DNA of 64,000 nt from a bacterium (GCA_021783725.1 JAJXTN010000004.1:12178-76177), one strand, 5' to 3'; shown: positions 1 to 57,687, numbered from the stretch's first letter. Numbers and translations are program-made. Notes: generated from the sequence alone by a model not told the origin.

Positions 1-989
1 CGACCGTCTGGACGAACACCGTCTTTAACGATACCTTTGCGAACGTCTTTGTGGACTGCCAGCTGGAAAGCTTCATCGTACTCAGCTTTAGCCCCAACAT
101 ATTCTTCACCAATCTTATCGGCGAAAGCGGTGTGCATTTGATCTCGTAAATTCTGGATTAAAGCGTTGCGCTCTGGATATGGAAGTCGCAAGTCTTCGCC
201 GAGTTGACCTTCCAGCCACTCATCGACAGCTTTCTGGACAGCCGGGTCGGGCAAATCAAGTTCGTATTCTTGCTTGGTAACGCCGATTTTCTTAACCAAC
301 TGTTCCTGGAGTGTAATCGCTGGTTGCATAGCTTTGAAAGCATAGTCGATGGCTTCAATGACTTGAGCCTCAGTAACTTCATTAGCTCCAGCCTCAACCA
401 TCATGACACCGTCTTTAGTGCCAGCGACAACGAGGTCGAGCGCACCTTCATCAAGCTGTTCAGCCGATGCGAAAGCCGTGTACTTACCGTCTACTAAGCC
501 AACACGCAGGCCGGCAACTGGCCCTTCGTAAGGAGCACCGGTTAGCATCAAAGCCGAGCTTAAGGCAATCATCGCTACCATATCAGGTCGAAATGCCGGA
601 TCCATGCTCAGGACTGTAGCCACGGCCTGAACTTCGTGTCGATAACCTTTAGGCCACAACGGACGAATTGGGCGGTCAATCAATCGACCAATCAAGATAG
701 CATCATCACTCGGACGACCTTCACGTTTGATGAAACGGCTGCCACTAACCTTGCCGGCGGCGTACATTTTCTCTTCATAATCAATACTTAGTGGGAAATA
801 GTCCATGCCAGAAATGCGGTTCGGGCTGACCATGGCTGTACCGAGCACGACTGTATCGCCGTAACGGGCGATGACTGAAGCTGAGGTCCTGAAACCAACT
901 CGACCAACTTCCAGGCTAAGCGTTCGACCGCATAGCTCAGTTTCGACTTTAATAATTTCTTTACCTAATGGATTGATAGTTTGTCCCAT
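1..989 (-). CDS. pnp: polyribonucleotide nucleotidyltransferase (PNPase), N-terminal part; the 3' end runs off the window
   Basis: Not in the ORF track because it is open at the window edge. Manual minus-strand translation from the ATG at 987-989 gives MGQTINPLGKEIIKVETELCGRTLSLEVGRVGFRTSASVIARYGDTVVLGTAMVS...DYFPLSIDYEEKMYAAGKVSGSRFIKREGRPSD, which is the PNPase RNase-PH domain 1. The gene order is the classic rpsO-pnp. Confidence 0.9.
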   Translation of the reverse strand, partial: MGQTINPLGKEIIKVETELCGRTLSLEVGRVGFRTSASVIARYGDTVVLGTAMVSPNRISGMDYFPLSIDYEEKMYAAGKVSGSRFIKREGRPSDDAILIGRLIDRPIRPLWPKGYRHEVQAVATVLSMDPAFRPDMVAMIALSSALMLTGAPYEGPVAGLRVGLVDGKYTAFASAEQLDEGALDLVVAGTKDGVMMVEAGANEVTEAQVIEAIDYAFKAMQPAITLQEQLVKKIGVTKQEYELDLPDPAVQKAVDEWLEGQLGEDLRLPYPERNALIQNLRDQMHTAFADKIGEEYVGAKAEYDEAFQLAVHKDVRKGIVKDGVRPDG

Positions 990-1255
990 ATGAAGGTACC
1001 TTTCTGTATCTAGAGTTATCTCGCCAGGGTTCAAATATATGGCGCTCCCCTTGTGCTAAATAAGGGTGCTATATATCTGCGTCTCTACCGAGATAGACTT
1101 CTAAGATGTTTAATGTGCACAAGCTTCGTCTATCGATTTTCGATAGACGTTGTCTATGCGCAAAAGGGGTTTTCAGAAATAGTGCAGTTTGTGCCATTAC
1201 GATGAGCATCGGAGCGCAAAGTTTGGTGCAAAATGTGCATTTCTGGGAACCCTCC

Positions 1256-1528
1256 CTAGCGGCGGATGCCGAGTTTCTTGATTAGGTCTAGGTAAGCTTG
1301 GCTATCACGTTCAGCAATATAAGCCAGCAAGCGTCGGCGCTTACCGACCATCTGCAATAGACCGCGTCGAGCGGCAAAGTCATGCTTGTTAATCTTCAGA
1401 TGTTCAGTCAATTCTTTGATGCGTTCAGTCAGAACAGCTACCTGGGCACTAGAGCCACCGGTGTCTTTAGCGTGGGCCTGCGCGCTTTTAATGGCGGCGG
1501 TTTTCTTCTCGGTTGTAATCATGTTCAA
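1256..1528 (-). CDS. rpsO: 30S ribosomal protein S15
   Basis: 90 aa. The motif ...VAVLTERIKELTEHLKINKHDFAARRGLLQMVGKRRRLLAYI... is typical S15, and the gene lies upstream of pnp. Confidence 0.95.
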   Translation of the reverse strand: MNMITTEKKTAAIKSAQAHAKDTGGSSAQVAVLTERIKELTEHLKINKHDFAARRGLLQMVGKRRRLLAYIAERDSQAYLDLIKKLGIRR

Positions 1529-1598
1529 GTATTTTATCAGATACCGACCCCTTATGCAAGTCCTAAATATCTAAAATGTATTCAAGTGCTTTGAATGT

Positions 1599-1886
1599 TT
1601 AAGCCCGGTGGCGAAAGCTACTAGGCAAGGGACCGGTGTTGGGCTTTCGGTCAGATCGATATCCGACCTCTACGGTTTGAAGGGTGCTAGATTGACCGGT
1701 CCTGGGTGCTGGAATATCTGGACTTAAGCCGGTGGCTAATATTACGGCCATGCCAGCCATACCAAGAGCGACAACCCTAGAAGCAAAACCATCGGCGACC
1801 GCCGGCATTTGATCCATAACTTGTTTGCTGGGTTGTCCAGTCATTAAGTCAATTACTTCAAATTGCCTTCTGTCACTCATGTGCAA
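1599..1886 (-). CDS. hypothetical small protein (one hydrophobic segment)
   Basis: The ORF abuts the truB stop codon. I recognise no family. The region may instead be a non-coding rpsO upstream region. Confidence 0.25.
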   Translation of the reverse strand: MHMSDRRQFEVIDLMTGQPSKQVMDQMPAVADGFASRVVALGMAGMAVILATGLSPDIPAPRTGQSSTLQTVEVGYRSDRKPNTGPLPSSFRHRA

Positions 1887-2753
1887 TTATTGTAGACTAG
1901 TCTGTAAATTTTTGGCAATCATGTCAGCATCTAATTTGTCGGTACCAATAGCCTCATCGATGAGATACTTACCTACTCGGATTCGTCGCAATTCAACAGT
2001 ATATGCACCAGTATTAAGTATTTTACCGATGTCTTCTACTAGCGTGCGGATATAAGTACCAGATGACACGTCAACCGTGAACTTCACCTCTGGATAGTTG
2101 TAGTCGTTAATCTGTAAGCTGTTAATTGATACCGTTCGCGGTTCGATTACTACTTGCTTACCTTCTCTGGCTAGTTTGTAGGCGCGTTGGCCATCAATCT
2201 TGATAGCCGAATAGGCTGGTGGCACCTGCTGAATAGCCCCCTTGAACTGTTTGGTTGCTTTTTCTACCTCATCTCGGGTGGGAATGACTATGTCATCTCG
2301 AGCTTGTCGAGAGATCTGTTCGGATTTACTATAGATCTCTCCACTCTGGTCGAGATGACGAGGCGCAAGTTCTGCATGACTAATAAAATCTGTGATTTCA
2401 CCTTCTGGGTCGCCAGTGGTGCTAGTTTTACCTAAACGCATGGTTACTTCGTAAGTTTTGTTTAGTTTCGATAGTTCGCCGGCTCGTTTGGTATAGTCTT
2501 TGCCTATTAAAAGTACTAATAATCCGGTAGCAAATGGATCAAGCGTGCCAGTGTGGCCGACTTTTACCTTCGGTAAACGAGTTGAAAGTTTGAAAGTTTC
2601 CCAGTCTAAGGTTATCTCGGCTTTTTCGCTTTTAGCTTTACGAACTTGATAACTTTCAACTACAGCGGCTTGTCGCGCAATCTGGCGTACGTAATTAACC
2701 ACGTCGAAACTTGTCCAACCGGCCGGTTTATCAACTAATAGCAGTCCTTGCAT
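1887..2753 (-). CDS. truB: tRNA pseudouridine(55) synthase TruB
   Basis: Motifs LLLVDKPAGWTSFDVV, GHTGTLDPFATGLL and QVPPAYSAIKIDGQRAY. I prefer the ATG at 2753 (MQGLLLVDKP) over the TTG at 2819 used in the track. The gene carries two repeat-derived in-frame inserts (see findings). Confidence 0.9.
   Translation of the reverse strand: MQGLLLVDKPAGWTSFDVVNYVRQIARQAAVVESYQVRKAKSEKAEITLDWETFKLSTRLPKVKVGHTGTLDPFATGLLVLLIGKDYTKRAGELSKLNKTYEVTMRLGKTSTTGDPEGEITDFISHAELAPRHLDQSGEIYSKSEQISRQARDDIVIPTRDEVEKATKQFKGAIQQVPPAYSAIKIDGQRAYKLAREGKQVVIEPRTVSINSLQINDYNYPEVKFTVDVSSGTYIRTLVEDIGKILNTGAYTVELRRIRVGKYLIDEAIGTDKLDADMIAKNLQTSLQ
2292..2359. repeat. GTCAT...ATGAC double-hairpin element embedded in the truB coding sequence
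   Basis: GTCATCTCGAGCTTGTCGAGAGATC-17 nt-GATCTCTCCACTCTGGTCGAGATGAC. The first hairpin is 25/25 identical to the reverse complement of 22258-22282. Confidence 0.85.
2580..2661. repeat. 82-nt segment bounded by a perfect 11-nt inverted repeat (AGTTGAAAGTT / AACTTTCAACT) inside truB
   Basis: Read directly from the sequence. It coincides with the first extra peptide of TruB (VESYQVRKAKSEKAEITLDWETFKLST). Confidence 0.7.
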
Positions 2754-2863
2754 AAAATTAAGTTTAACCCAAGAGGGCAAAAAGACAGACGCGACGGGCA
2801 AAAAGACAGCATTTAGCAATTTGCAAATTGCTCATTGCTAATCGTAGTTTGTCACCTGTTGTT

Positions 2864-4459
2864 TTAGGCGCTGGGCGGTCGAAACTGAAACGGAATCGGT
2901 GGTGGCACTGGTGGTGGCGCATTAGGATCATTGACTTCTGGCGGTGGAATCGTTGGCTCAGTGTTATGCAGTATATCGCCTAGTGGTTGAGCGTTTAGAG
3001 CTTGGATTGGTTCAGGGGTGCTACTAGGTACTGAATTTAGGGCTTGATTTACTTGATCTCTGGCGTCTTCTAAGTTGGCTTCGGCCGCCACATGTGGACT
3101 GTGCACTGATTCTTCTAAATCGGTTAGTGTTTCGTCGGAAGTATCATCGGCTAAGATTTTCAAACCGCTAGTGTCACCAATTGGGGCCGCCCAAGCTGGT
3201 GGTGGCGGTGAGAAGTCCGGCATTGCTGGCATTGGTGGCAATGGCTTGTCGGCTGGAGATGCTGTAAGAGGTTCCGGCGATTGGTCTGATGAAGTTGTAG
3301 CCGGTGGCTGTATCGATTCGGCCTGATCGGTACTAGGCATCGACTGCGACGGACTGTGGTCCAACATTTTACCTTGCGGTGCATAACCCATACTTAATGG
3401 GTCAACGGCGGGGTCGAGCCCTTCGGGCTGAGAATTAGCCGTCAATACCCCGCCCATGGTTGGCGCTGAAGTCATCAATCTTGAGCCGGGCGAAAGATTC
3501 TCGGAAGCCGGTTCGTCGGATTGCTCGGGCGGTTTCGATTCATCCAAACTCGGTAGTTTCAAATCTGGCAATTGATCCATTAGCGAAGGGTTGGATGGAA
3601 TCTCCGTGGCATTAGAATTATGACTTATGGCAAGGGTGCCGTCATCGGACTTAGTCGAACTATCATTGAGCGTTACTAGATCTTGCGATTCGTCGGTCGA
3701 TACGATTGACAAGCTACCCGATTCTTCGAGCTTAGTCGCAACCAATTGCTGATTAGCCCCGGCGGTCATTAAGGTCGCACTAACACTCATAGTCTGCGAA
3801 CTGGTCTTCTGATTACTGAACCGATTGGTTTCAGCCACAATACCAGTCAGTAAAGCGGTAGCAATTTGGGCATCAATCAAATTAGCGCCTAATTTACTAG
3901 CTAGGTCAGCCACAAGTTCGCCTAGGCTACTAGCTTGAGCGTCTGTCCAATTAAGACTACCTAACTCACCGCCTGTGACAGTGTTGATGCTGATGACTGT
4001 GGCATCATGAAGAATTCGCCCATGAGTGGTGATTGCCTCATCAAGATCCTCTTGTTTTAGTACACCCAAAGCAACAACAGCATCGACATTAAAATCACCT
4101 TGGCTAAAATCTAAATCATCTTGGGTGATTGATGTTCTATAAGGAGTAATGAATATTCTGACGACATTATCTTCAACTTTATAGCGCAGTTTGTCGGCTT
4201 TGGACTTATCTAGGGCAATTATGAAATCGCGCAATGAATCGGTGTTCTTCTCTAAAGTATCGCTCGGCTGGAGAAATTCAATCGTCGACGGTACTTGGCC
4301 ACTAAAAACAGCGGCCGTATGTTTGCCTAGCTTATTCAATAACAGAGTTAGTCCGATACAAGCCGACAGTTGGTCGACCGACGGGTTGCGACTAACCGTC
4401 ACCAATATATTATTGGCGGTCTTGAGTTTATCAGCAATCTCAGTTTTTACATTTTCCAT
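2864..4459 (-). CDS. DHH/NrnA-like phosphoesterase-fold protein with degenerate catalytic motifs and a long Pro/Ser-rich tail
   Basis: The N-terminal ~250 aa align in pattern with NrnA-type DHH proteins (ILVTVSRNPSVDQLSACIGLTLLL..., ...SSLGELVADL). The DGD and DHH positions read SVD and SIN. The C-terminal ~280 aa are low complexity. The position next to truB is typical for nrnA. Confidence 0.6.
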   Translation of the reverse strand: MENVKTEIADKLKTANNILVTVSRNPSVDQLSACIGLTLLLNKLGKHTAAVFSGQVPSTIEFLQPSDTLEKNTDSLRDFIIALDKSKADKLRYKVEDNVVRIFITPYRTSITQDDLDFSQGDFNVDAVVALGVLKQEDLDEAITTHGRILHDATVISINTVTGGELGSLNWTDAQASSLGELVADLASKLGANLIDAQIATALLTGIVAETNRFSNQKTSSQTMSVSATLMTAGANQQLVATKLEESGSLSIVSTDESQDLVTLNDSSTKSDDGTLAISHNSNATEIPSNPSLMDQLPDLKLPSLDESKPPEQSDEPASENLSPGSRLMTSAPTMGGVLTANSQPEGLDPAVDPLSMGYAPQGKMLDHSPSQSMPSTDQAESIQPPATTSSDQSPEPLTASPADKPLPPMPAMPDFSPPPPAWAAPIGDTSGLKILADDTSDETLTDLEESVHSPHVAAEANLEDARDQVNQALNSVPSSTPEPIQALNAQPLGDILHNTEPTIPPPEVNDPNAPPPVPPPIPFQFRPPSA

Positions 4460-4659
4460 AAAGATTTTTGTTTAGGCTTATCTTCTGACAATGTATCATA
4501 AACGCTCATGTTTAGCAATCTTCGATACTTCTATTAGAATCAGGTATTGGCCTAACAGCCTTCAAGCTAATGTATGCCGACCTTGGCCCTGGCTTTACAA
4601 AGCTAAATCACCCCTGTATAGTTGGTACCAATAATCATTAGTTATAAGCAAGGAAATAT

Positions 4660-5004
4660 ATGCCGATTATCAAATCAGCTAAAAAGCGCGTCAAAACAGC
4701 TCGAAAAGCTACTACTCGTAACAGCAAAACTAAGCGTAGTCTAAAAAGTGCATTCAAGCTTTTCACTAAAAGCCCTAGCGCTAAAACCCACAGTGCCGCC
4801 CAGAGCAACCTCGACAAAGCCGTCAAGAAAGGTCTAATTCACAAGAACAAAGCCGCTCGCCTCAAGAAACAAGCTTCGGCTAAAGCTAAGTCGGCTGGTG
4901 TCAAACACACCGCTGTCAAAAAAGCCGTTCCCGCAAAAGCTACACCTAAAAAAGTTGTCGCCAAGAAACCTGTCGCTAAGAAGACCACTGCTAAGAAAAA
5001 ATAG
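4660..5004 (+). CDS. rpsT: 30S ribosomal protein S20 with a Lys/Ala/Pro-rich C-terminal extension
   Basis: MPIIKSAKKRVKTARKATTRNSKTKRSLKSAFK is the S20 N-terminus. There is a Shine-Dalgarno-like AAGGAAA upstream. Confidence 0.9.
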   Translation: MPIIKSAKKRVKTARKATTRNSKTKRSLKSAFKLFTKSPSAKTHSAAQSNLDKAVKKGLIHKNKAARLKKQASAKAKSAGVKHTAVKKAVPAKATPKKVVAKKPVAKKTTAKKK

Positions 5005-5018
5005 TCTGTTAGTTGGAT

Positions 5019-5093
5019 AGTTAAATAGTGAGATAGTAAACCGCAGAAATGCTGGCGTACTATACGACTATAAAACTATCCCACTATTTAACT
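5019..5093. terminator. long inverted repeat between convergent rpsT and holA (candidate bidirectional terminator)
   Basis: AGTTAAATAGTGAGATAGT (5019-5037) pairs with ACTATCCCACTATTTAACT (5075-5093), matching 18 of 19 positions. Confidence 0.45.
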
Positions 5094-5108
5094 AATTATT
5101 TATTAAAG

Positions 5109-6038
5109 CTATTTTATTGATAGCTTTAATAAATAATTCTGCAAAGCTTCGTCACTGTCGATGTTTGAACTCTTAGAAGCAATATCGATAGCTAGTAGGT
5201 CGGCGATCAATTTTTTGAGCTGTCCGAGAGTTAATTGGGCGGCGACTGATTGACTTTTGCGGACTACAAAAGGATTTAACTTGGCATCGCTAGCGATTTG
5301 GTCAGCGCTAATATCACCGGCCGTTTTGATAATCGCTAAAATATGCAACTGCCAGGCCAGCATGGCTATAATTTGCGGAGTCTCAACTTTCAGAGCCCGC
5401 TGTTCTGAGTAGAGCTGGATGGCTTTCTTGGACTGGCCATTGAAAGCCGCTTCCAATAATTGGAAGATAGTACTCTGGGGTGTTTCGTCTACCAGCAAAT
5501 CGATAGTCCTACGAGTAACTTTCTCATCATATAACAGTAGTTTTTCGAGTTCATTACCAAGTAACTGCTGATTTAGACCAACCCGGTCGGCCAGATATCT
5601 AGCATCATTTAGATTCAGTTCCCCGCCCTTGGTTTTTGCTTGAGCAACCAACCACTGACTTAACCCATTAATATCTAACTCTTTATACTCTCGATAATTG
5701 GTTTTTGATTTTAGATACTTATAATAACTTAGTCGTTTATCAAGCTTAGTTTCAATAATGACGACGTCGTTAGTTTCGGGTAAGTTGGTCAATATTTGTT
5801 CAGCTCGGTCGGCAAATGACTTATTTTTACTCGGCGACCTTAGAATGACCAATTTTTTAGTTGATAGGAATGGTAAGCTGTTCAGCGCTTCTTCTATTTT
5901 CTCAATATCGGCTTCTTCGCCATCAATTCGTTCCAGAGCTAGATCACCATGCTCCTCAACGAATTTAGCAACCAGCTCATTTAGAGCAATTTGCCAACCA
6001 AAGCTATTGTCGCCGGCCAATGTAATAATCATGTTCAC
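5109..6038 (-). CDS. holA: DNA polymerase III subunit delta
   Basis: 309 aa. The N-terminus ...LERIDGEEADIEKIEEALNSLPFLSTKKLVILRSP... is typical of HolA, and the gene is adjacent to rpsT as in many Gram-positives. Confidence 0.8.
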   Translation of the reverse strand: MNMIITLAGDNSFGWQIALNELVAKFVEEHGDLALERIDGEEADIEKIEEALNSLPFLSTKKLVILRSPSKNKSFADRAEQILTNLPETNDVVIIETKLDKRLSYYKYLKSKTNYREYKELDINGLSQWLVAQAKTKGGELNLNDARYLADRVGLNQQLLGNELEKLLLYDEKVTRRTIDLLVDETPQSTIFQLLEAAFNGQSKKAIQLYSEQRALKVETPQIIAMLAWQLHILAIIKTAGDISADQIASDAKLNPFVVRKSQSVAAQLTLGQLKKLIADLLAIDIASKSSNIDSDEALQNYLLKLSIK

Positions 6039-6161
6039 CTATTGTAGCAATCAATTAATATCAATTCGCTATTTCACAATCATTCATTATTATTTCCAGT
6101 TATCAATTAACCTCCCCGTAGTAAGCGCTAGCCATCCAGCCCCTTTTCATCCCAAGGCCAG

Positions 6162-6252
6162 GTCATCCCAGGCTTGACCTGGGATCTAATCGGTTATGGC
6201 GTCCTACGATCCAGCTACATAATATTAGATTCCAGATCAAGTCTGGAATGAC
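6162..6252. repeat. GTCAT...ATGAC double-hairpin element (copy A), followed by two further GTCTGGA(A)ATGAC half-units to 6293
   Basis: GTCATCCCAGGCTTGACCTGGGATC ... AGATTCCAGATCAAGTCTGGAATGAC. It is the inverted counterpart of 55226-55318. Confidence 0.85.
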
Positions 6253-6309
6253 GACGGACGTCTGGAAATGACGTAGAAGAGTCTGGAATGACAGGGAGAA
6301 TTAATTATT

Positions 6310-9818: not shown

Positions 9819-10336
9819 AATGACTCTGTATTTACATTTTGAAAATAGTAGTCCCAGGCTGGTAGCTCTAACGTAAACAGTTTCTCAGGCGTTTCTTCAT
9901 ATATCTGTTTTACTACTGTGGCGTCCTCCCAGTGGACATTCAATGACTCACCGGCTTGGTCCTGTGGCTCACCATCTTCTACTTCACACCTAAATATGAA
10001 TCCGACCCATGGTCTTCCCTCTCGAAGTTGCTGAGTGCAACAGAATGGTCTGAAACCAAATGCCGCATCAACTCCTTGCGGAGAGTGAACTTTGGTCTGA
10101 GAATCATCAATGATTCGTTTAAGCACCATGCCAGTTTCTTCTTTTATCTCGCGGGCTACGGCGGTATAAACATTCTCGTATTCAATATCCAAAGTCCCAG
10201 CGGCAAATTCAAAAGTTCCGTTATATATCGATTGATACTTGGTATTCCATCGAGTTTGGATTAATAACTGTAACCTACCTTGGTGTTGGCGCTCGACGAT
10301 TGCCGCCACAAACGGTACGCAATATTTTTTATCCAT
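9815..10336 (-). CDS. NUDIX hydrolase
   Basis: Nudix box G.LDIEYENVYTAVAREIKEETGM. The ATG at 10336 (MDKKY) lies just after the polA stop. Confidence 0.8.
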   Translation of the reverse strand: MDKKYCVPFVAAIVERQHQGRLQLLIQTRWNTKYQSIYNGTFEFAAGTLDIEYENVYTAVAREIKEETGMVLKRIIDDSQTKVHSPQGVDAAFGFRPFCCTQQLREGRPWVGFIFRCEVEDGEPQDQAGESLNVHWEDATVVKQIYEETPEKLFTLELPAWDYYFQNVNTESL

Positions 10337-19949: not shown

Positions 19950-19977
19950 CCTACAGCCTACTTTCTACTGTCTACTC
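19950..19977. repeat. heptamer array (CCTACAG CCTACTT TCTACTG TCTACTC)
   Basis: Four units with 7-nt periodicity, immediately left of element copy B. Confidence 0.7.
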
Positions 19978-19984
19978 CCGCTCT

Positions 19985-20075
19985 GTCATCCCGACTGAAA
20001 TGGAGGGAACTATTAAACTATCCGACTATGAGACTATCCGACTTTATATAGATCTCTCGACTAGCTCGAGATGAC
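19985..20075. repeat. GTCAT...ATGAC double-hairpin element (copy B)
   Basis: GTCATCCCGACTGAAATGGAGGGAAC ... GATCTCTCGACTAGCTCGAGATGAC. Confidence 0.85.
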
Positions 20076-20077
20076 AT

Positions 20078-20105
20078 GTCTACGGTCTACTTGCTACAGT
20101 CTACT
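20078..20105. repeat. heptamer array (GTCTACG GTCTACT TGCTACA GTCTACT)
   Basis: Four units immediately right of copy B. The array overlaps the stop codon of the YjbR-like gene. Confidence 0.7.
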
Positions 20106-22158: not shown

Positions 22159-22204
22159 ATAAAGAATCTAGCAAGTAATTTCCTACTGTCTAAATATGCT
22201 CGCT

Positions 22205-22282
22205 GTCATCTTGAGCGGAACGTGAGTGAAGTCGAAAGATCTGTTGTATATTCCATGGATCTCTCGACAAGCTCGAGATGAC
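22205..22282. repeat. GTCAT...ATGAC double-hairpin element (copy C), flanked by the 11-nt direct repeat CTACTGTCTAA
   Basis: GTCATCTTGAGCGGAACG... ...GATCTCTCGACAAGCTCGAGATGAC. The direct repeats lie at 22183-22193 and 22287-22297. Confidence 0.85.
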
Positions 22283-22293
22283 AAGGCTACTGT

Positions 22294-22707
22294 CTAACTG
22301 TCCTCGGGTTCAGTTTCTTGGGGCATGAATTGCAGACAGGAAGAATTGATACAGTACCTTTTGCCAGTTGGTTGGTCAACAGCATCTTCGAACATATGGC
22401 CTAGATGACTACCGCAGTTAACACAAGCTACCTCGGTGCGAACCATACCGTGGCTTTTATCTTCAACTAATTTTATAGCCGTGGTGTTAGCCGGGTCATA
22501 GAAACTAGGCCAGCCACTACCACTTTCAAACTTGGTGTCGCTTTTGAAAACCACTGCCCCACAAGCACCACACACGAAGTCACCACTGCCATGCTCATTC
22601 AATAATTTACCGGTGAAAGGCGCTTCGGTAGCTTTCTGGCGCAAACTAGCATATTGCTCAGGAGTGAGCTTCTGTTTCCATTCGTCATCAGATAACTGCA
22701 TGGTCAT
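22294..22707 (-). CDS. msrB: peptide-methionine (R)-S-oxide reductase
   Basis: CxxC ... CxxC zinc site and the catalytic motif RYCINSSCL. Confidence 0.93.
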
Positions 22708-23202: not shown

Positions 23203-25008
23203 CTACATTGTCTCGGGTGCGTTAATGCCTAACAATTCTAAGCCAGTTTTAAGCCGCTGAGCGTACAACTCGACCAGTTTTAACCGAATTGCCTGGCGAT
23301 CGTCACCAACTACTCGATTATGCTCATAGAAACGATTAAAATTTTGAGCTAATTCATACAAATAAGTGGCGATGTAGTGAGGCATCAGTTCATTGACAGC
23401 TTTATCAAATACTTCGGGGAATTCACTGATTTTGCGAGCCAGACTACGCTCGCCAGGCTCAAAAGTCACATTTAGCCCAGTCTCGGCTTTTGATGGGCTA
23501 GAATCCGTCGGCACGCTATTCGACGGAGTGATGTTGCTCACGACAGGCATATCTTGATTGGATTCCAAATCAAGTTTGGAATGACTTGGAGAGTTTTCGG
23601 CTTTGCGTAAAATACTGCGGGCCCGAGCATGCGCATACTGCAAATATGGGCCGCTATTGCCTTCGATGCTAACCGATTCCTCGGGGTCATAAATGATGTC
23701 ACCGCCGGTACGCTGTTTCAAAAATGCGTACTTAACAGCTGAGTTCGACACTTGATCGTTAGTCTGGGCATTGATTTTCTCAGACGCGACTTTGGCGGCA
23801 TCCAGTACATCATTAGCCAACAAGAAATTACCCTTACGCGAACTCATTTTCACCCCACCAGCCAGCTTAATTTGGCCATGAGTAATATGTTTGGTGCGTG
23901 GTGGCAGTTCCGGCTGGAATTGCTCAATGCTTTTGAGCACAACTTTCATATACTCGACAATATCATTACCAGTGACAATGACCGATGTATCGAAAGCGTA
24001 ATCCTGCCATTTCTTCATGATTAAACCGACGTCTTTGGCTTCATAAGTTGGCAAACCAGCCGAATTGATAAATACCCGAGTGTGTAAGCCATATGGTTCA
24101 CCACGAAATATTACGGCACCGTCACTGACCTCATAAACCCCTTTGGCTAGTTGTTGTTTGACGGTATCGATACCAAGTTGAGCGGTTTCGCTTTCAGGAT
24201 AATATTTCTCAAAGGCGGTTACGCCAAGTCGTTCATAGAATAAATTGAAATAGTCATAACTCCATTGTCGGCAAGTCCAGTAGACATAGGCAAAATCGCT
24301 ATCTTTATCACCACTAGTTTGTGTTTCGTAGACCCGTTTATTGATAGAAACGATTTCGGTTTTGGCCACTTCATCTTCGTCATAAGCACTGCTACCATCT
24401 ACATATCGAGCCGCCATGAAAGCCGCTTTTTCATCAAGCGATTCGGTCGACATCGATTGAATATGCTGTTTGGCGGCGACCTCATCAACTTGGCCTTGAC
24501 CGTCATATTTCAAAATGCCCCACATCGCTTTACCAACATGAAGACCAACGTCACCACCAAAGTTAACTCGGTGCACGTTGCCACCAGCGGTCTCTAGCAA
24601 ATTGGCAATCGCGTTGCCGACAATCGTCGTATATAAATGACCAGCATGTAAAACTTTGAAAGGGTTGGGATCAGAATACTCGGCGACGATAGTTTGGTCT
24701 TTTAACGACCGCGATAATTCGCTATACATTGCCTGATTTATGCTGGTATCGTTCAATGTCAGATTAATGAAACCGGGGCCAGCGATGTCGATGGCACTCA
24801 GTTTATCAGCCAGCTTGGTTTGTAAGACTGACGTTAATTCTTCGGCTACCTGTCTAGGGTTTTTACTGACCGACTTGGCTAACTGGAGAGCGACGTTAGT
24901 CGCGTAATCACCAAACTTTTCTTCAGGACGAGTTAATTCAATTACTACTTTTTGACCGAATAAATCTTCGGCAACTTCAGCAATCACATTCTCCAAATCT
25001 TTCTGCAT
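23203..25008 (-). CDS. argS: arginine--tRNA ligase
   Basis: HAGHLYTTIVG (HIGH), KMSSRKG (KMSKS-like) and the C-terminal anticodon-binding DALR-type region. It contains a repeat-derived insert (see findings). Confidence 0.93.
   Translation of the reverse strand: MQKDLENVIAEVAEDLFGQKVVIELTRPEEKFGDYATNVALQLAKSVSKNPRQVAEELTSVLQTKLADKLSAIDIAGPGFINLTLNDTSINQAMYSELSRSLKDQTIVAEYSDPNPFKVLHAGHLYTTIVGNAIANLLETAGGNVHRVNFGGDVGLHVGKAMWGILKYDGQGQVDEVAAKQHIQSMSTESLDEKAAFMAARYVDGSSAYDEDEVAKTEIVSINKRVYETQTSGDKDSDFAYVYWTCRQWSYDYFNLFYERLGVTAFEKYYPESETAQLGIDTVKQQLAKGVYEVSDGAVIFRGEPYGLHTRVFINSAGLPTYEAKDVGLIMKKWQDYAFDTSVIVTGNDIVEYMKVVLKSIEQFQPELPPRTKHITHGQIKLAGGVKMSSRKGNFLLANDVLDAAKVASEKINAQTNDQVSNSAVKYAFLKQRTGGDIIYDPEESVSIEGNSGPYLQYAHARARSILRKAENSPSHSKLDLESNQDMPVVSNITPSNSVPTDSSPSKAETGLNVTFEPGERSLARKISEFPEVFDKAVNELMPHYIATYLYELAQNFNRFYEHNRVVGDDRQAIRLKLVELYAQRLKTGLELLGINAPETM
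23465..23585. repeat. GTCAC...ATGAC double-hairpin element embedded in the argS coding sequence
   Basis: ...GATTCCAAATCAAGTTTGGAATGAC (23561-23585) matches the intergenic unit AGATTCCAGATCAAGTCTGGAATGAC, with a compensatory G:C to A:T change in the stem. A second hairpin, TAGCCCA...TGGGCTA, lies at the other end. Confidence 0.8.
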
Positions 25009-33749: not shown

Positions 33750-33900
33750 ATATTAACCTAATTATCCTTAATATTATTTTTTTGTTTTTGATATTTCAAA
33801 ACTTATTCTAACAAATTACAAGTGATTTGTCAACTATAATTAAACATATTATGTATTTATGCAATTTTAGTTCGAGGTACTCATGATATGCTAGTCAGTG

Positions 33901-34983
33901 ATGAAAATACTTGGGATTGAGACTAGTTGTGATGAAACGGCCGCTAGCGTCGTCGAAGATGGCCGACGATTGATTAGCAATGTTGTGGCTTCAAGCATGG
34001 ATTTGCATGTCAAATACGGTGGCGTAGTGCCAGAAATTGCCGCTCGCAGTCATATCGAAGTTATCAATTCAGTCATTCAGCAAGCTCTCGAACCGCTATC
34101 AGGTACGACCCAGCAGGAAAAGTGGGCCCAAATTGACGGCATCGCCGTGACTTACGGTGCTGGGCTCGGTGGTAGTTTGTTGATTGGGGTCATGACGGCC
34201 AAATCTTTGGCAATTAATTATCATAAGCCGCTATATGCGATAAATCATGTTGAAGGCCACGTGTACGCCAATTTCCTAACCGAAGCCTCGCCTGCCCTGT
34301 CTACTGTCTACAGTCTACGGTCTACTGCCCCAGTTTTCCCGATGTTGGCCGTTATCGTTTCCGGTGGGCACAGCCAATTAGCACTGTTTCGCAATCATTT
34401 TGACTACACGCTATTGGGCCAAACTCAAGATGACGCTATCGGCGAAGCTTTCGACAAAGTTGCCAAAATCATTGGTCTGCCCTACCCTGGTGGACCTTCG
34501 GTAGCTAAAGCGGCGGAATCTGGCGACCCCACCAAGTACAAATTGCCCAAAGCCAAGATGACTGGTTACGACTTTAGCTTCTCTGGGCTCAAAACAGCCG
34601 TTCTAAGGCTGGCACAGGCCGAAATCGGGGAAAGTTACGACTTCCCTTCTATGAAGCTAGCCGAACGACTTACAACCGTCCAAAAACAAAACATTGCCGC
34701 CAGTTTCCAGCGAACCGCCATAGAGACCATTGTTGATAAAGTTAAAACCGCTTATCAAGAATTCTCGCCCGCAAGTGTCGTAATTGCTGGTGGCGTCGCC
34801 GCCAATCAAGAATTGCGTCGCCAATTGAGCATTGCCCTGCCATTATCGGTTGACTATCCTGACATTAATCTTTGTACCGACAACGGGGCAATGATCGCTA
34901 CTCTGGGATGCTATAAAGCCCTGCTCGATCAACCACCAGCCGACCCCTACACCTTGGCTATCAACCCCAATCTGACGATGTAG
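33901..34983 (+). CDS. tsaD: tRNA N6-adenosine threonylcarbamoyltransferase
   Basis: ILGIETSCDETA, HVEGH, VSGGHSQL and CTDNGAMIA. Confidence 0.93.
   Translation: MKILGIETSCDETAASVVEDGRRLISNVVASSMDLHVKYGGVVPEIAARSHIEVINSVIQQALEPLSGTTQQEKWAQIDGIAVTYGAGLGGSLLIGVMTAKSLAINYHKPLYAINHVEGHVYANFLTEASPALSTVYSLRSTAPVFPMLAVIVSGGHSQLALFRNHFDYTLLGQTQDDAIGEAFDKVAKIIGLPYPGGPSVAKAAESGDPTKYKLPKAKMTGYDFSFSGLKTAVLRLAQAEIGESYDFPSMKLAERLTTVQKQNIAASFQRTAIETIVDKVKTAYQEFSPASVVIAGGVAANQELRRQLSIALPLSVDYPDINLCTDNGAMIATLGCYKALLDQPPADPYTLAINPNLTM
34299..34326. repeat. heptamer array GTCTACT GTCTACA GTCTACG GTCTACT inside tsaD
   Basis: Read directly from the sequence. It is the same motif as the arrays flanking element copy B. 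Confidence 0.8.
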
Positions 34984-44412: not shown

Positions 44413-44427
44413 GTTAAAGAAGTGTAT

Positions 44428-44517
44428 GGAGAGGTGCAAGAGTGGTTGAATTGGACGGTCTCGAAAACCGTTGTGCCAGCAATGGTACCGAGGGTTCGAA
44501 TCCCTCCTTCTCCGCCA
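44428..44517 (+). tRNA. tRNA-Ser (anticodon CGA)
   Basis: Type II tRNA with anticodon arm ACGGT-CTCGAAA-ACCGT, a long variable arm, T loop TTCGAAT and encoded CCA. Confidence 0.9.
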
Positions 44518-44522
44518 AATTA

Positions 44523-44551
44523 AAAACACTCAGCTTGCCTGGGTGTTTTTA
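44523..44551 (+). terminator. rho-independent terminator after tRNA-Ser(CGA)
   Basis: AACACTCAG-cttg-CCTGGGTGTT followed by TTTTAT. Confidence 0.65.
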
Positions 44552-54877: not shown

Positions 54878-54921
54878 GTATCTGTTCGAGCAACCGTGTT
54901 ATTGTAACTCGTATTTTAATC

Positions 54922-55011
54922 TGGCGGAAGGGGTGGGATTCGAACCCACGGTACCATTGCTGGCACGACGGTTTTCAAGACCGTTTCCATCGACCACTCG
55001 GACACCCTTCC
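54922..55011 (-). tRNA. tRNA-Ser (anticodon UGA)
   Basis: Acceptor GGAAGGG/CCCTTCC, anticodon arm ACGGT-CTTGAAA-ACCGT, a long variable arm and encoded CCA. Confidence 0.9.
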
Positions 55012-55124
55012 ATAACAGAGGTAATTATATCTTTTCAGGCCTTATTCTCCAAACTTAAAAATGATTAATTACAGTTTACATACTCTTACAGTAGCTCAGG
55101 CCTAGCATCCGGCCACAATTCCTT

Positions 55125-55210
55125 GTCATCTTGAGCCCCACCTCTTAGGCTGGGGCAGGCTCCGTAGAAAGTTCTGTTTGAGTGGATCTCTCCATTTCAG
55201 TCGAGATGAC
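55125..55210. repeat. GTCAT...ATGAC double-hairpin element (copy D1)
   Basis: GTCATCTTGAGCCCCA...TGGGGC... ...GATCTCTCCATTTCAGTCGAGATGAC. Confidence 0.85.
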
Positions 55211-55225
55211 AGTGAGACGGTGTTT

Positions 55226-55318
55226 GTCATTCCAGACTTGATCTGGAATCTAATCTTTAATGTAGCTGGAGCGCTTTGCGCCAAAACTGATTGGATCCCA
55301 GGTCAAGCCTGGGATGAC
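55226..55318. repeat. GTCAT...ATGAC double-hairpin element (copy D2), inverted counterpart of copy A
   Basis: GTCATTCCAGACTTGATCTGGAATC ... GATCCCAGGTCAAGCCTGGGATGAC. Confidence 0.85.
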
Positions 55319-55405
55319 TTGGAATTTAAGCTGTTCGATAATTGATAAATGTTTATTGTGAAATTATTTGTTAAATGTGAAATGACAATTGTATAAATAG
55401 CTTTA

Positions 55406-56071
55406 TTAGGGTTGGGCGAAGACCAAGGCTTCGACTCTTCTAGCACCGCTTCTACGTAATAATGTTGCCGCTGACTCAAGAGTCGAGCCAGTAGTCACAA
55501 CATCGTCGATCAACAAAATATTCGCATTATGGATACTGCCGACCCGGACAACTCTAAACGCCCCTTTCAGTTGAGCCAACCTTTGACTGCGTCGGGCACC
55601 GACTTGATGAGACTGATTGGTCCGCTTCAAACAGTTCACTAGCGGTTGACCTGATAACTTAGCTAACTCTCTGGCTAGCAAAACGGCTTGATCATAACCG
55701 CGACGGCGAATTCGACTGCTAGCGGTCGGCACCGGCACAATCACATAACTAACATCTGGGTCGATATTGCGAAACATACGCTTGGCCATTTGCTTAGTTA
55801 CTGCCTGGGCGCCATGAAACTTTAGATTCCAGACTACGTCTTTAGCCAAACCGGTATATATGGTAGCAACCCGGACACTGTACAGTCGACTGCTACTACG
55901 ACAAGGTCGGCAGGTGAGGGCTTGTGGTGACACTTTACGACAGCGATAACACCTTGGCGGAATGACTGGTAATTGATGATTACAGCTATCACAAAGCAAG
56001 CTACCTTCAGTCCGACAACCCAGACATTCATAAGGCGCTATTACAGACAGCAGTCGATCAAATATACTCAT
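55406..56071 (-). CDS. comFC: ComF-family protein (phosphoribosyltransferase domain)
   Basis: An N-terminal Cys-rich zinc ribbon (CLGC...CDSC...CYRC) and the PRT motif LLIDDVVTTGSTL. Confidence 0.8.
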   Translation of the reverse strand: MSIFDRLLSVIAPYECLGCRTEGSLLCDSCNHQLPVIPPRCYRCRKVSPQALTCRPCRSSSRLYSVRVATIYTGLAKDVVWNLKFHGAQAVTKQMAKRMFRNIDPDVSYVIVPVPTASSRIRRRGYDQAVLLARELAKLSGQPLVNCLKRTNQSHQVGARRSQRLAQLKGAFRVVRVGSIHNANILLIDDVVTTGSTLESAATLLRRSGARRVEALVFAQP

Positions 56072-56226
56072 GTTGTGATTAATGTGTTGTAAATAAGTGA
56101 GGGCAAGTTGCACTCTCTTAACGACCTAAGCTATACTGTTGATAACACAAAAATGCAAGACTCTTATCACTGATTCCTTAACTATTTAAGGATGACGTTG
56201 CATTAATCAATTGGAGGGTAACAACT

Positions 56227-56706
56227 ATGGCGCGACGTAATCGCGATGACGATTTATTACTCGAAGAAGACGAACTAACTGCGGCTTTTTTGGGTGATGA
56301 TGATCTGAGTATGGCTACACAGGCCGGTGAGCCAACAGCTACACCAGCCGTTGAAGATGAGTGGGACGAGGACGAAAGCGTACCTGGACAGCTCGCTGTT
56401 GATGTATTCGAGACTCGTGAAAAACTAGTCGTTAAGGCCCGCACCGCTGGTGTCAACAAGAGTGATTTGGATGTCAGTATTTCTGATAACCAATTAACGA
56501 TTCGCGGCACTTTGAGTAGTGGCACCGAAGACGGTGTCGAGAACTACTTCCTGCAAGAATGTTACTGGGGTGAATTCTCACGAACTATCGCTTTGCCAGT
56601 ACCAGTCAAGGAAGAAGAGATTGAGGCCGTCCTTAAAGATGGTGTGTTAACCATAAGCTTTGGTAAGCTCCAACAAGATACCATCAAGAAGATTCAAGTC
56701 TTGTAG
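56227..56706 (+). CDS. Hsp20/alpha-crystallin small heat-shock protein
   Basis: LAVDVFETREKLVVKARTAGV... FSRTIALPVPV...AVLKDGVLTISF. GGAGGG lies 8 nt upstream of the ATG. Confidence 0.9.
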   Translation: MARRNRDDDLLLEEDELTAAFLGDDDLSMATQAGEPTATPAVEDEWDEDESVPGQLAVDVFETREKLVVKARTAGVNKSDLDVSISDNQLTIRGTLSSGTEDGVENYFLQECYWGEFSRTIALPVPVKEEEIEAVLKDGVLTISFGKLQQDTIKKIQVL

Positions 56707-56774: not shown

Positions 56775-57203
56775 CTAAGCCGTTAAGCCAGTGTTGCTAG
56801 CTGTAGTCAACACGAAGTGAACGATGAATTGAGCTAGAGCGACAATCAATAGTCCAATGATCGCGTAGATCAAAGTATTCTTGGCGCCAGACACGTGTCC
56901 GCTGTCACCACCGGAAGTAATATATTTGAATCCGCCCCAGATAACCATAATAACGGCCACGATACCGACAATGATTGAGAACACATTAACGATCTGTGAT
57001 GCAATGTGCGCAAATGAACCATTAGCTGTTGTGGTCGTACAGCCTGAAGAACTACCCCCCGTAGCCGTATTTGTGCCTGTACATAGACTAGTGTTGATAT
57101 TGTCCGCAACTGCTACACCAGCTAGGCCAGGCACCAAGCCCGGAGCCAAGAGGGATACGCTAGCGATGAGTACGAAAATTGATTTTTTAATTTTGCCGAT
57201 CAT
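56775..57203 (-). CDS. VirB2/TrbC-type T4SS pilin-like protein, paralog 6 of 6 in transcription order
   Basis: Leader, 2 Cys, TM1, YITSGGDSGHVSGAKNTLIYAIIGLLIVALAQFIVHFVL. Confidence 0.7.
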   Translation of the reverse strand: MIGKIKKSIFVLIASVSLLAPGLVPGLAGVAVADNINTSLCTGTNTATGGSSSGCTTTTANGSFAHIASQIVNVFSIIVGIVAVIMVIWGGFKYITSGGDSGHVSGAKNTLIYAIIGLLIVALAQFIVHFVLTTASNTGLTA

Positions 57204-57264: not shown

Positions 57265-57687
57265 TTAAACACCTTGGGCCGTAGTCAGAACAAAGTGGAC
57301 AATGAACTGAGCTAGGGAAGCAATGAACAAACCAATAATCGCATAGATTAAGGCATTTTTAGCTTTAGTGATTTTGCCACTGTCACCACCGGAAGTGATA
57401 TACAAGAAACCAGCATAAACTATCATGATGACCGCTACTACACCGACAGCGTAACTAATAATCTTGACTATCGATACGATTAAACTGTCGACACCAGAAG
57501 TGCTACAGCTAGCGCCAGTCTGATTAATGCCTCCTAACACCTGGCCTTGGGCGGTTGTATTCTGAATACAAGCAGGCCCTGGCGCTGGGGTTGTTGATGG
57601 TGCGGCATAGGCCGAGCCAGCCCCGATTATAAACGGCACGAAAATCATGGCTAGTGTCACGAACATTTTGGAAAATATTTTATTCAA
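57265..57687 (-). CDS. VirB2/TrbC-type T4SS pilin-like protein, paralog 5
   Basis: Signal peptide ...GSAYAAP, 2 Cys, TM1, YITSGGDSGKITKAKNALIYAIIGLFIASLAQFIVHFVL. The track start is TTG, so the true start is uncertain. Confidence 0.7.
   Translation of the reverse strand: MNKIFSKMFVTLAMIFVPFIIGAGSAYAAPSTTPAPGPACIQNTTAQGQVLGGINQTGASCSTSGVDSLIVSIVKIISYAVGVVAVIMIVYAGFLYITSGGDSGKITKAKNALIYAIIGLFIASLAQFIVHFVLTTAQGV

Follow-up and report, generated by a model that had tools for sequence, protein, structure and literature searches.

Results

A repeat dimer lies in frame within truB

The bacterial DNA analysed here is a stretch of 64,000 nucleotides (GCA_021783725.1, JAJXTN010000004.1:12178-76177), which in its full length is called the window. 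On its minus strand it encodes a TruB protein, and inside the truB coding sequence lies a palindromic repeat dimer, built of two inverted hairpin units, that has relatives elsewhere in the window (Table 1). All conserved TruB motifs are intact, the GTLDP stretch included. The NCBI/ENA record (84.5-kb contig) holds the same protein with a longer start; use of the upstream TTG at 2819 yields this 310-aa truB annotation.

Table 1. Coordinates of truB, its expanded loop and the repeat units in the window (ORF, open reading frame).
Feature	Position	Strand	Remarks
truB coding sequence	1887..2753	-	288 aa from MQGLL; Pfam TruB_N and TruB_C_2 matches
Codons for TruB residues 123-159, expanded loop	2277..2387	-	between strand 120-122 and helix 160-168
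Complete repeat dimer	2292..2359	.	two inverted hairpin units, GTCAT tags outward, 17-nt spacer
B-type unit tGTCATCTCGAGCTTGTCGAGAGATCtg	2291..2318	+	TGTC tag, 7-bp stem with 2-nt bulge, loop GCTTG
A-type unit cGTCATCTCGACCAGAGTGGAGAGATCta	2332..2360	-	CGTC tag, interrupted stem 5+2 bp
Intergenic canonical dimer	6161..6253	.	units 6161-6188+ and 6226-6253-; downstream of fpg, upstream of holA
Intergenic A+B dimer	19984..20076	.	between convergent ORFs; 96% conserved at orthologous L210 site
Intergenic dimer, long-loop unit + B unit	22204..22283	.	between convergent ORFs; 98% conserved in L210
Single canonical unit inside argS	23559..23586	-	in frame; encodes SHSKLDLESN
Two adjacent intergenic dimers, 55126-55211 and 55225-55319	55126..55319	.	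downstream of comFC-like gene
Single unit	56171..56197	-	overlaps 3' end of ORF 56178..56525

The element had been noticed in an earlier reading made from the DNA alone (the sequence-only reading), and its quoted plus-strand sequence matches exactly on re-reading, with the layout GTCATCTCGAGCTTGTCGAGAGATC + 17 nt + GATCTCTCCACTCTGGTCGAGATGAC. The proposed read-through in frame was borne out as well, the stop-free translation being HLDQSGEIYSKSEQISRQARDD. In the mRNA (the minus strand) the order is cGTCAT, A arm, GATC, spacer, GATC, B arm, ATGACa, with (R)HLDQSGEI encoded by the A-type unit and ISRQARDD by the B-type unit. Both arms begin with AT, end in tails CTG or CTA, and have the GTC before and the C after the palindrome; the base ahead of GTC is c in the A arm (cGTC) and t in the B arm (tGTC). 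The description as a complete double-hairpin unit of 68 nt stands with regard to the two inverted units, but the best fold is one long hairpin. Folded as a single strand, the 68 nt reach -31.4 kcal/mol as RNA (z = -4.9) and -17.7 kcal/mol as DNA (z = -5.0).

The left arm GTCATCTCGAGCTTGTCGAGAGATC occurs three times in the window at up to 3 mismatches, namely as itself, at 22258-22282(-) with 0 mismatches, in agreement with the 25/25 identity claimed before, and at 20051-20075(-) with 1; no copy is expected by chance (100 dinucleotide-preserving shuffles). The right arm was said to be nearly identical to 55185-55210. A similar copy is indeed present there, however it matches at only 22/26 positions and its true span is 55186-55211; all 4 differences lie in the loop. 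No further window copy of the right arm was found within 3 mismatches, and shuffles likewise gave zero matches.

The insert occupies a TruB loop that is filled in some homologues and empty in others

Extra residues had been suspected at this site of TruB, and structure alignments agree with this: solved TruB structures align on both sides and skip the segment, query residues 125 and 161 corresponding to residues 94 and 101 of M. tuberculosis TruB and to residues 88 and 95 of T. maritima TruB. When the insert is mapped on an AlphaFold2 model, as had been proposed, residues 123-159 are low-confidence coil (mean pLDDT of the whole model 88, below 50 at residues 133-146). Judged from the model, the repeat dimer sits in a predicted disordered, permissive surface loop. 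In truB genes of other Saccharibacteria and members of the candidate phyla radiation (L021, L022, L033 and L042) unrelated inserts occupy the same loop, those of L022 and L033 being GC-rich; thus, the loop is tolerant of many kinds of extra sequence. A second TruB insertion of about 35 aa is located at residues 26-60 (2574-2678, minus strand), where ARQAAVVESYQVRKAKSEKAEITLDWETFKLSTRL stands in place of VATVEGKK. It is clade-specific, being present in only some of the aligned Saccharibacteria TruBs, and by eye no obvious palindrome or repeat similarity is seen in it. Its first two-thirds lie within a long, confident helix (residues 15-45), and the mean pLDDT over the insertion is 86-93.

For comparison we used the best 120 TruB homologues, the named sources of which are all Saccharibacteria or Patescibacteria. 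The segment from TGDxEG to QxPP has 27-32 residues in most of them (empty loops) and 42-73 in about 25 (filled loops). The closest homologues, P0002-P0005, with 73-74% identity over aligned residues, are all empty. The filled genes are spread across the tree, and nearly all of them have an empty gene as nearest relative in the set; the neighbour-joining tree (227 columns) is weakly resolved, so it shows scatter and cannot count events. The alignment of orthologues thereby reveals the presence/absence pattern that the sequence-only reading had asked for, but without clean junctions for the exact 68-nt unit. The 68 nt are not a multiple of 3, and compared with empty homologues the gene is longer by about 28-30 codons. 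A DNA comparison of the filled and empty genes of L087 and L211 (87% protein identity) showed neither clean junctions nor a target duplication. As in Rickettsia palindromic elements (RPEs), an in-frame insertion in a conserved gene is found together with insert-free homologues.

The filled loops contain repeat-coded peptides that belong to several subfamilies, HLDRSGEI...ISRQAQDD, VISNESEKS...RSFARAQDD, VISTEVEKS...ISRQARDD, HPERSEG-SFAIAQDD and VIPSEVEES...SFDVAQDD; in all but a few the peptide ends in DD (GATGAC). In the DNA of nine filled homologues, the tagged hairpin arms have the site and orientation seen in the window truB. Further units are piled beside the truB dimer of both L083 and L088; the truB arms of L003 overlap each other by 4 nt. 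Canonical units occur around filled truB genes on the flanks that were retrieved, and none was found around the closest empty one, L082. A profile scan of genome contigs with the TruB alignment listed mostly distant matches (at most 55% identity), among which L003 alone was informative. Distant TruBs with residues at this site that lack any nucleotide similarity to the repeats had been named as an observation that would speak against an insertion. Inserts do occur there in distant TruBs, but they share the repeat family in their nucleotides and hence do not contradict it. In L086 a repeat dimer (9968-10057) is placed just upstream of truB, and the database protein P0054 starts inside this dimer; its false N-terminal extension (…VPACAGMT…) is an annotation artefact that stems from the repeats.

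The insert is conserved as DNA

When filled genes are compared with each other, truB on either side of the insert has a nucleotide identity of 57-67%, with 31-42% at third codon positions, while the repeat arms are 80-100% identical. The A arm at 2332..2360 shares 81-96% identity with the truB A arms of L003, L081, L083 and L084. The spacers of filled truB dimers measure -4, 17, 17, 21 and 23 nt; by eye, they seem unrelated. In the window, L081, L083 and L003 the A arm is translated in the frame (R)HLDRSGEI, and in L084 and L088 one base out of phase, giving (V/F)ISTEVEKS. Because the arm is translated in two frames, the peptide is not the conserved thing. The truB insert is conserved at the DNA level, not at the peptide level, and the pattern of arms and spacers is compatible with insertions that recurred, or with renewal out of a conserved genomic pool.

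Related units in the window and in other genes

Scanning the window with a regular expression and a covariance model built from canonical units gave 14 units at 8 places (6 dimers, all with tags outward, and 2 single units), where chance expects none. The canonical unit consists of (N)GTC, an 8-bp stem starting with AT, a loop of 4-5 nt, the stem complement and C(C/T)A. Perfect 8-bp stems starting with AT are found in the units at 6161, 6226, 23559, 55225 and 55292. Stems vary between copies (TCCAGA, CCCAGG, CCCGGC) with pairing kept, a count that is circular as units were chosen for pairing. In 17 aligned units GTC is invariant and the C after the stem nearly so; loops are CTTGA, GCTTG or GAAG, and canonical tails CTA or CCA. 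As read from the sequence, the spacers of four dimers other than that in truB measure 10-42 nt. Intergenic dimers lie between convergent ORFs (19984, 22204) or downstream of genes (6161, 55126). No flanking direct (target-site) duplication was seen at any of the six window dimers, and Rfam at gathering thresholds over the window returned four tRNAs and no family for the repeats. Behind the dimer 6161-6253, at 6254-6295, two partial right half-units, TCTGGAAATGAC and TCTGGAATGAC, look like remnants of further copies.

TruB is not the only protein that is colonised in frame. The argS ORF (23203..25008, minus strand) contains its canonical unit within an expansion of about 35 aa of the linker before the anticodon-binding domain; compared with a relative that is 94% identical overall, the repeat-coded part of this expansion is unchanged and the remainder diverges fast. 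Longer inserts are present in this linker of about 25 ArgS homologues; among those listed, many are coded by repeats, with peptides such as VILNDSEES...RSAQDD, RHPELVSG...KQVQDD and HPDQSGG...ISRAARDD. In L083 an in-frame dimer (4820-4919) adds 34 aa, RHPEPRSGDSGSHGESAKSSQQVNGILDQVRNDE, to fpg (4562..5539); the window fpg is without it. A metagenome scan with a degenerate B-arm pattern matched in at least 120 contigs, in which FolD, a metallophosphoesterase, a SpoU methylase, a GalT-like and an F420-ligase-like protein are further in-frame hosts; none of the 80 metagenome matches checked was located in truB. Repeat-coded peptides used as protein query retrieved no database candidate sharing words.

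The units resemble CGTC-tagged REPs

A class of elements with this anatomy has been described as CGTC-tagged repetitive extragenic palindromes (REPs), comprising the families CGTC-1 to CGTC-4 (Di Nocera, De Gregorio and Rocco, 2013; PMC3733652). These carry a CGTC tag (often TGTC, or CCTC in many copies), stems of 8-9 bp that almost always start with A-T pairs, a loop of 4-5 nt and a CCA-like tail, and the majority are paired head-to-head as dimers, separated by about 20-100 bp (PMC3733652). CGTC-1 equals Neisseria dRS3, CGTC-1 and CGTC-4 equal RPE-6 and RPE-4 of Rickettsia, and no dedicated transposase was found for CGTC REPs (PMC3733652). Many genes contain REP dimers of 20-30 aa in frame; several of them code for tRNA synthetases, and truB of both Erythrobacter litoralis and Sphingopyxis alaskensis is also among them (PMC3733652). 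The REP insert spans residues 164-190 of the TruB of E. litoralis and 169-177 of that of S. alaskensis and, by position, is probably not in the loop that is filled in the window TruB.

The truB element belongs, on the basis of its motifs, to this CGTC-tagged REP class, which is shared with dRS3/NTS of Neisseria. Common features are the CGTC/TGTC tag, in canonical units the 8-bp stem starting with AT, the loop, the CCA-like tail and dimers that can be folded as one hairpin, as well as placement between convergent or same-direction ORFs and in-frame dimers in genes including truB. Several traits differ. The host phylum is new, since the published survey covers 5 phyla and leaves TM7 unmentioned (PMC3733652), and the stems here are AT-richer (TCCAGA, TCTCGA). 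The truB arms are bulged or interrupted, and the truB spacer is shorter than the usual 20-100. Furthermore, one TruB loop is occupied in many lineages, which was reported in that survey only for recB of Xanthomonas (PMC3733652). With NTS, the Neisseria unit of which is CGTCATTCCCGCGMAVGCGGGAATCYRG (PMC11893778), the elements share the layout CGTCAT-palindrome-C.

The comparison with RPEs made in the sequence-only reading, which took the element for a selfish palindromic repeat in frame within an essential ORF, is supported by empty homologues, intergenic copies and the low-confidence coil. The analogy is closer than that reading knew, because the units fit the CGTC superfamily that holds RPE-4 and RPE-6. 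This link to Rickettsia rests on the published equation of RPE-6 and RPE-4 with CGTC-1 and CGTC-4 (PMC3733652). In their first description RPEs are about 150 bp long, and the peptide that they encode is conserved (Ogata et al., 2000; summary in PMC10969869). RPE-1 is present in R. conorii truB (PMC3733652). RPE-1-type elements resemble the element described here in being palindromic repeats that are inserted in frame into housekeeping genes, with R. conorii truB among the hosts, and that do not inactivate these genes. A difference is that the present element has 68 nt and two tagged hairpins, and that its peptide is not conserved as the frame differs between lineages.

REPINs with RAYT transposases, reportedly described by Bertels and Rainey in 2011, are another known system of inverted REPs. 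In both, two inverted REPs and a spacer form a long hairpin, and copies constitute a long-lived sequence population within a genome, with a single-copy helper enzyme encoded elsewhere. Unlike in REPINs, the tag is CGTC/TGTC and not GTAG, and the candidate helper is a GIY-YIG protein and not a Y1 transposase.

A GIY-YIG protein is a candidate partner

SsnA of Neisseria, a single-domain GIY-YIG protein of 94 aa, binds NTS and cuts it solely in the single-stranded state. For cleavage it needs the GTC ahead of the palindrome, for binding the C that follows the palindrome; its gene is arranged as NTS-ssnA-NTS (Nat Commun 2025; PMC11893778). Among the 120 metagenome loci listed with the B-arm pattern only, 8 contain a small GIY-YIG gene (7 complete, 1 truncated). 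The 7 complete proteins have 93-121 aa and a single Pfam PF01541 domain. In all 7, repeat sequence adjoins the gene or overlaps its 3' end, and the tags of mapped units always point outward. The flanking units in L186, L108 and L153 are 26/26 identical to window positions 2291-2316. As in the NTS-ssnA-NTS architecture, units identical to a truB arm flank small single-domain GIY-YIG genes in metagenome contigs with tags outward; a difference is that the window contains no ssn-like gene. The L108 protein is assigned by NCBI name to Candidatus Komeilibacteria, a lineage of the candidate phyla radiation (CPR), and a near-identical member of its cluster is encoded on an 860-kb contig. Searches with NCBIfam and PDB sequences place the metagenome proteins only as small GIY-YIG, nearest to UPF0213. 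By analogy, the tags-outward dimer could be the gene-less version of a repeat-nuclease-repeat module, related to it as a MITE (miniature inverted-repeat transposable element) is to its insertion sequence. Y1 transposases gave no tblastn match in 2.38 Mb, with IS200 TnpA and E. coli RAYT seeds that are perhaps imperfect.

Discussion

We consider it likely that a gene-less, non-autonomous dimer of the CGTC class has landed in a permissive, disordered loop of TruB and persists there by read-through. In such a scenario a dimer of two tagged hairpin units would land in the surface loop and be kept because it is read without a stop, the enzyme then carrying about 30 extra loop residues. The dimer would be the gene-less counterpart of a repeat-gene-repeat module with a gene for a small, single-domain Ssn-type GIY-YIG nuclease, an enzyme that would recognise and cut these hairpins in single-stranded DNA only. 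For copies to spread or be renewed, a GIY-YIG enzyme acting in trans, or recombination between copies, would be required, and the TruB loop would either have been struck repeatedly or, once filled, have been refreshed from the genomic pool.

Several observations weigh against this scenario. The published SRM pattern, HGTCWYN(0-2)YYVSBRHN(0-5)WNVSBRGN(0-2)RNCYNB, has 0 matches in the window and recognizes 0/6 tested units; as a control, Neisseria NTS matches, and one GC-rich unit of a relative fails only at the last position. The stems of the truB arms are interrupted, and the two truB units score only 15.5 bits each with the covariance model (R1) that was built from canonical units. Neither a GIY-YIG gene nor a Y1 transposase gene was found in the 64-kb window or in 1.5 Mb of TruB/ArgS-anchored loci, so that a cognate enzyme in this genome is hypothetical. 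Moreover, Ssn has been shown to cut, not to transpose, and mobilisation is a hypothesis only (PMC11893778). The intergenic dimers are 96-98% identical at the same sites in L210, whose ArgS is 94% identical, and there is therefore no direct sign of recent movement. Finally, the right junction, 3 residues ahead of the conserved Pro, is common to the carriers of A+B dimers (window, L081 and L003), and a 17-nt spacer with similar encoded peptides (YSKSEQ vs SSKAEE) is common to the window and L083, which leaves one old insertion with many losses or later turnover conceivable.

The most explicit form of the latter idea is a single ancient insertion that was inherited vertically, the arms being selected in cis, for instance as an mRNA hairpin by which translation or decay is tuned or as a protein-binding DNA site, and the empty genes being losses. 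Site, orientation and the DD-coding right end are alike in all filled homologues, the arms are far better conserved than synonymous sites, the hairpin is strong at -31.4 kcal/mol, and the common spacer of the window and L083 would also be accounted for. We nevertheless regard this explanation as improbable. The filled genes are dispersed, nearly every one with an empty gene as a closer relative, spacer lengths differ by non-multiples of 3, the A arm is used in two frames, and different repeat subfamilies occupy the same TruB loop. In addition, identical arms are found intergenically and beside GIY-YIG genes in unrelated contigs, and the ArgS loop shows the same pattern, which speaks for loop tolerance and not for a function specific to truB.

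Other sources of a short inverted repeat fare worse. A classical MITE would have arisen by deletion from an insertion sequence with a DDE transposase and would show terminal inverted repeats and target-site duplications. The shortness of the element, its inverted ends, its multiple copies and the lack of own coding capacity suit this picture, yet it is highly improbable since no direct duplication flanks the six dimers or emerges from the filled/empty comparison, each arm is itself a tagged hairpin, single units occur alone, and the gene found between such units codes for a GIY-YIG nuclease, not for a DDE transposase. It is hardly credible that the dimer is a GTAG-type REPIN mobilised by a RAYT (Y1, HUH) transposase: the tag is (C/T)GTC and not GTAG, no Y1 transposase turned up in 2.38 Mb (with perhaps imperfect seeds), and for CGTC REPs no dedicated transposase was found by Di Nocera et al. 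(PMC3733652). In favour stands the REPIN anatomy of two inverted REPs that fold into one long hairpin. The sequence comes from a metagenome-assembled genome, and misjoins can arise from repeats. Still, an assembly artefact or a chance palindrome has practically no probability in view of the intact frame and conserved TruB motifs, the homologues from other samples with the same insert type at the same site, and shuffles that give zero matches. The Logan assembly L089 (SRR13162838) is also 100% identical over 3813 nt (window 396-4208) with the insert included, although it may share reads.

Beyond the likely landing of a non-autonomous dimer, we put forward with considerable doubt that the TruB loop and a loop of ArgS are landing pads that the repeat family strikes or renews over and over. 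An active GIY-YIG nuclease system specific for hairpins would keep the arms there at the DNA level, by re-insertion or by conversion from copy to copy, across lineages with saturated synonymous sites. If this were true, CPR genomes of about 1 Mb would host a live repeat-nuclease partnership, and in-gene dimers would be a natural read-out of how CGTC/NTS-type repeats multiply.

Concerning novelty, the element class was described in 2013 and its cognate nuclease in 2025, and in-frame truB copies are known in other phyla; the truB finding thus leaves knowledge of the element kind itself unchanged. That colonisation of ORFs had not been described in CPR bacteria, as the sequence-only reading supposed, is right in so far as we found no CPR report, but the novelty was overrated, because in-frame REPs in truB were already published. 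In the literature searched, no description of such repeats in Saccharibacteria or Patescibacteria was found, and the words 'intragenic', 'within genes' and 'Patescibacteria' do not occur in the main text of the SsnA paper (PMC11893778). New are the hosts, Saccharibacteria and CPR bacteria, the repeated occupation of the same TruB and ArgS loops, the DNA-level conservation with different frames, and the failure of the published motif pattern on these units. The CGTC REP or dRS3/NTS class is thereby extended to Saccharibacteria and other CPR lineages, which concerns host range and not a new kind of element. These tiny genomes are usually thought to be poor in repetitive DNA. Essential enzymes of translation and repair (TruB, ArgS, Fpg) have permissive loops in which in-frame colonisation recurs. 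For annotation, repeat-coded peptides (HLDRSGEI, ISRQARDD, VISNESEKS) matter as they inflate protein lengths and create false N-terminal extensions, as in P0054. Arm identity of 80-100% against saturated synonymous sites offers a concrete system for studying repeat renewal, and GIY-YIG genes flanked by identical units add a candidate enzyme.

Further observations in the window

Heptad-like motifs CTACNGT(CTAC) flank the two dimers between convergent genes (19951-19975 and 20080-20104; 22183-22192 and 22287-22296), and a tandem run of the motif at 34301-34325 falls within the span of ORF 33898..34983. The window has 7 matches against 0.07 expected. As the motifs are absent from the flanks of the truB copy, they are probably outside the mobile unit. 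The minus-strand gene at 55406-56113 is bracketed by the repeats 55126-55319 and 56171-56197 and encodes a double zinc ribbon and a phosphoribosyltransferase domain; it looks like ComFC, a competence protein. The NTS/SsnA system of Neisseria modulates natural transformation, and a link to this gene may be coincidence. A 171-nt direct repeat of 70% identity (56800-56970 and 57278-57448) lies in the minus-strand ORFs 56775..57203 and 57265..57687, which are probably tandem paralogues. The longest inverted repeat of the window (101 nt, 81%; 44425-44525 and 54914-55014) corresponds to two tRNA-Ser genes with the anticodons cga and tga.

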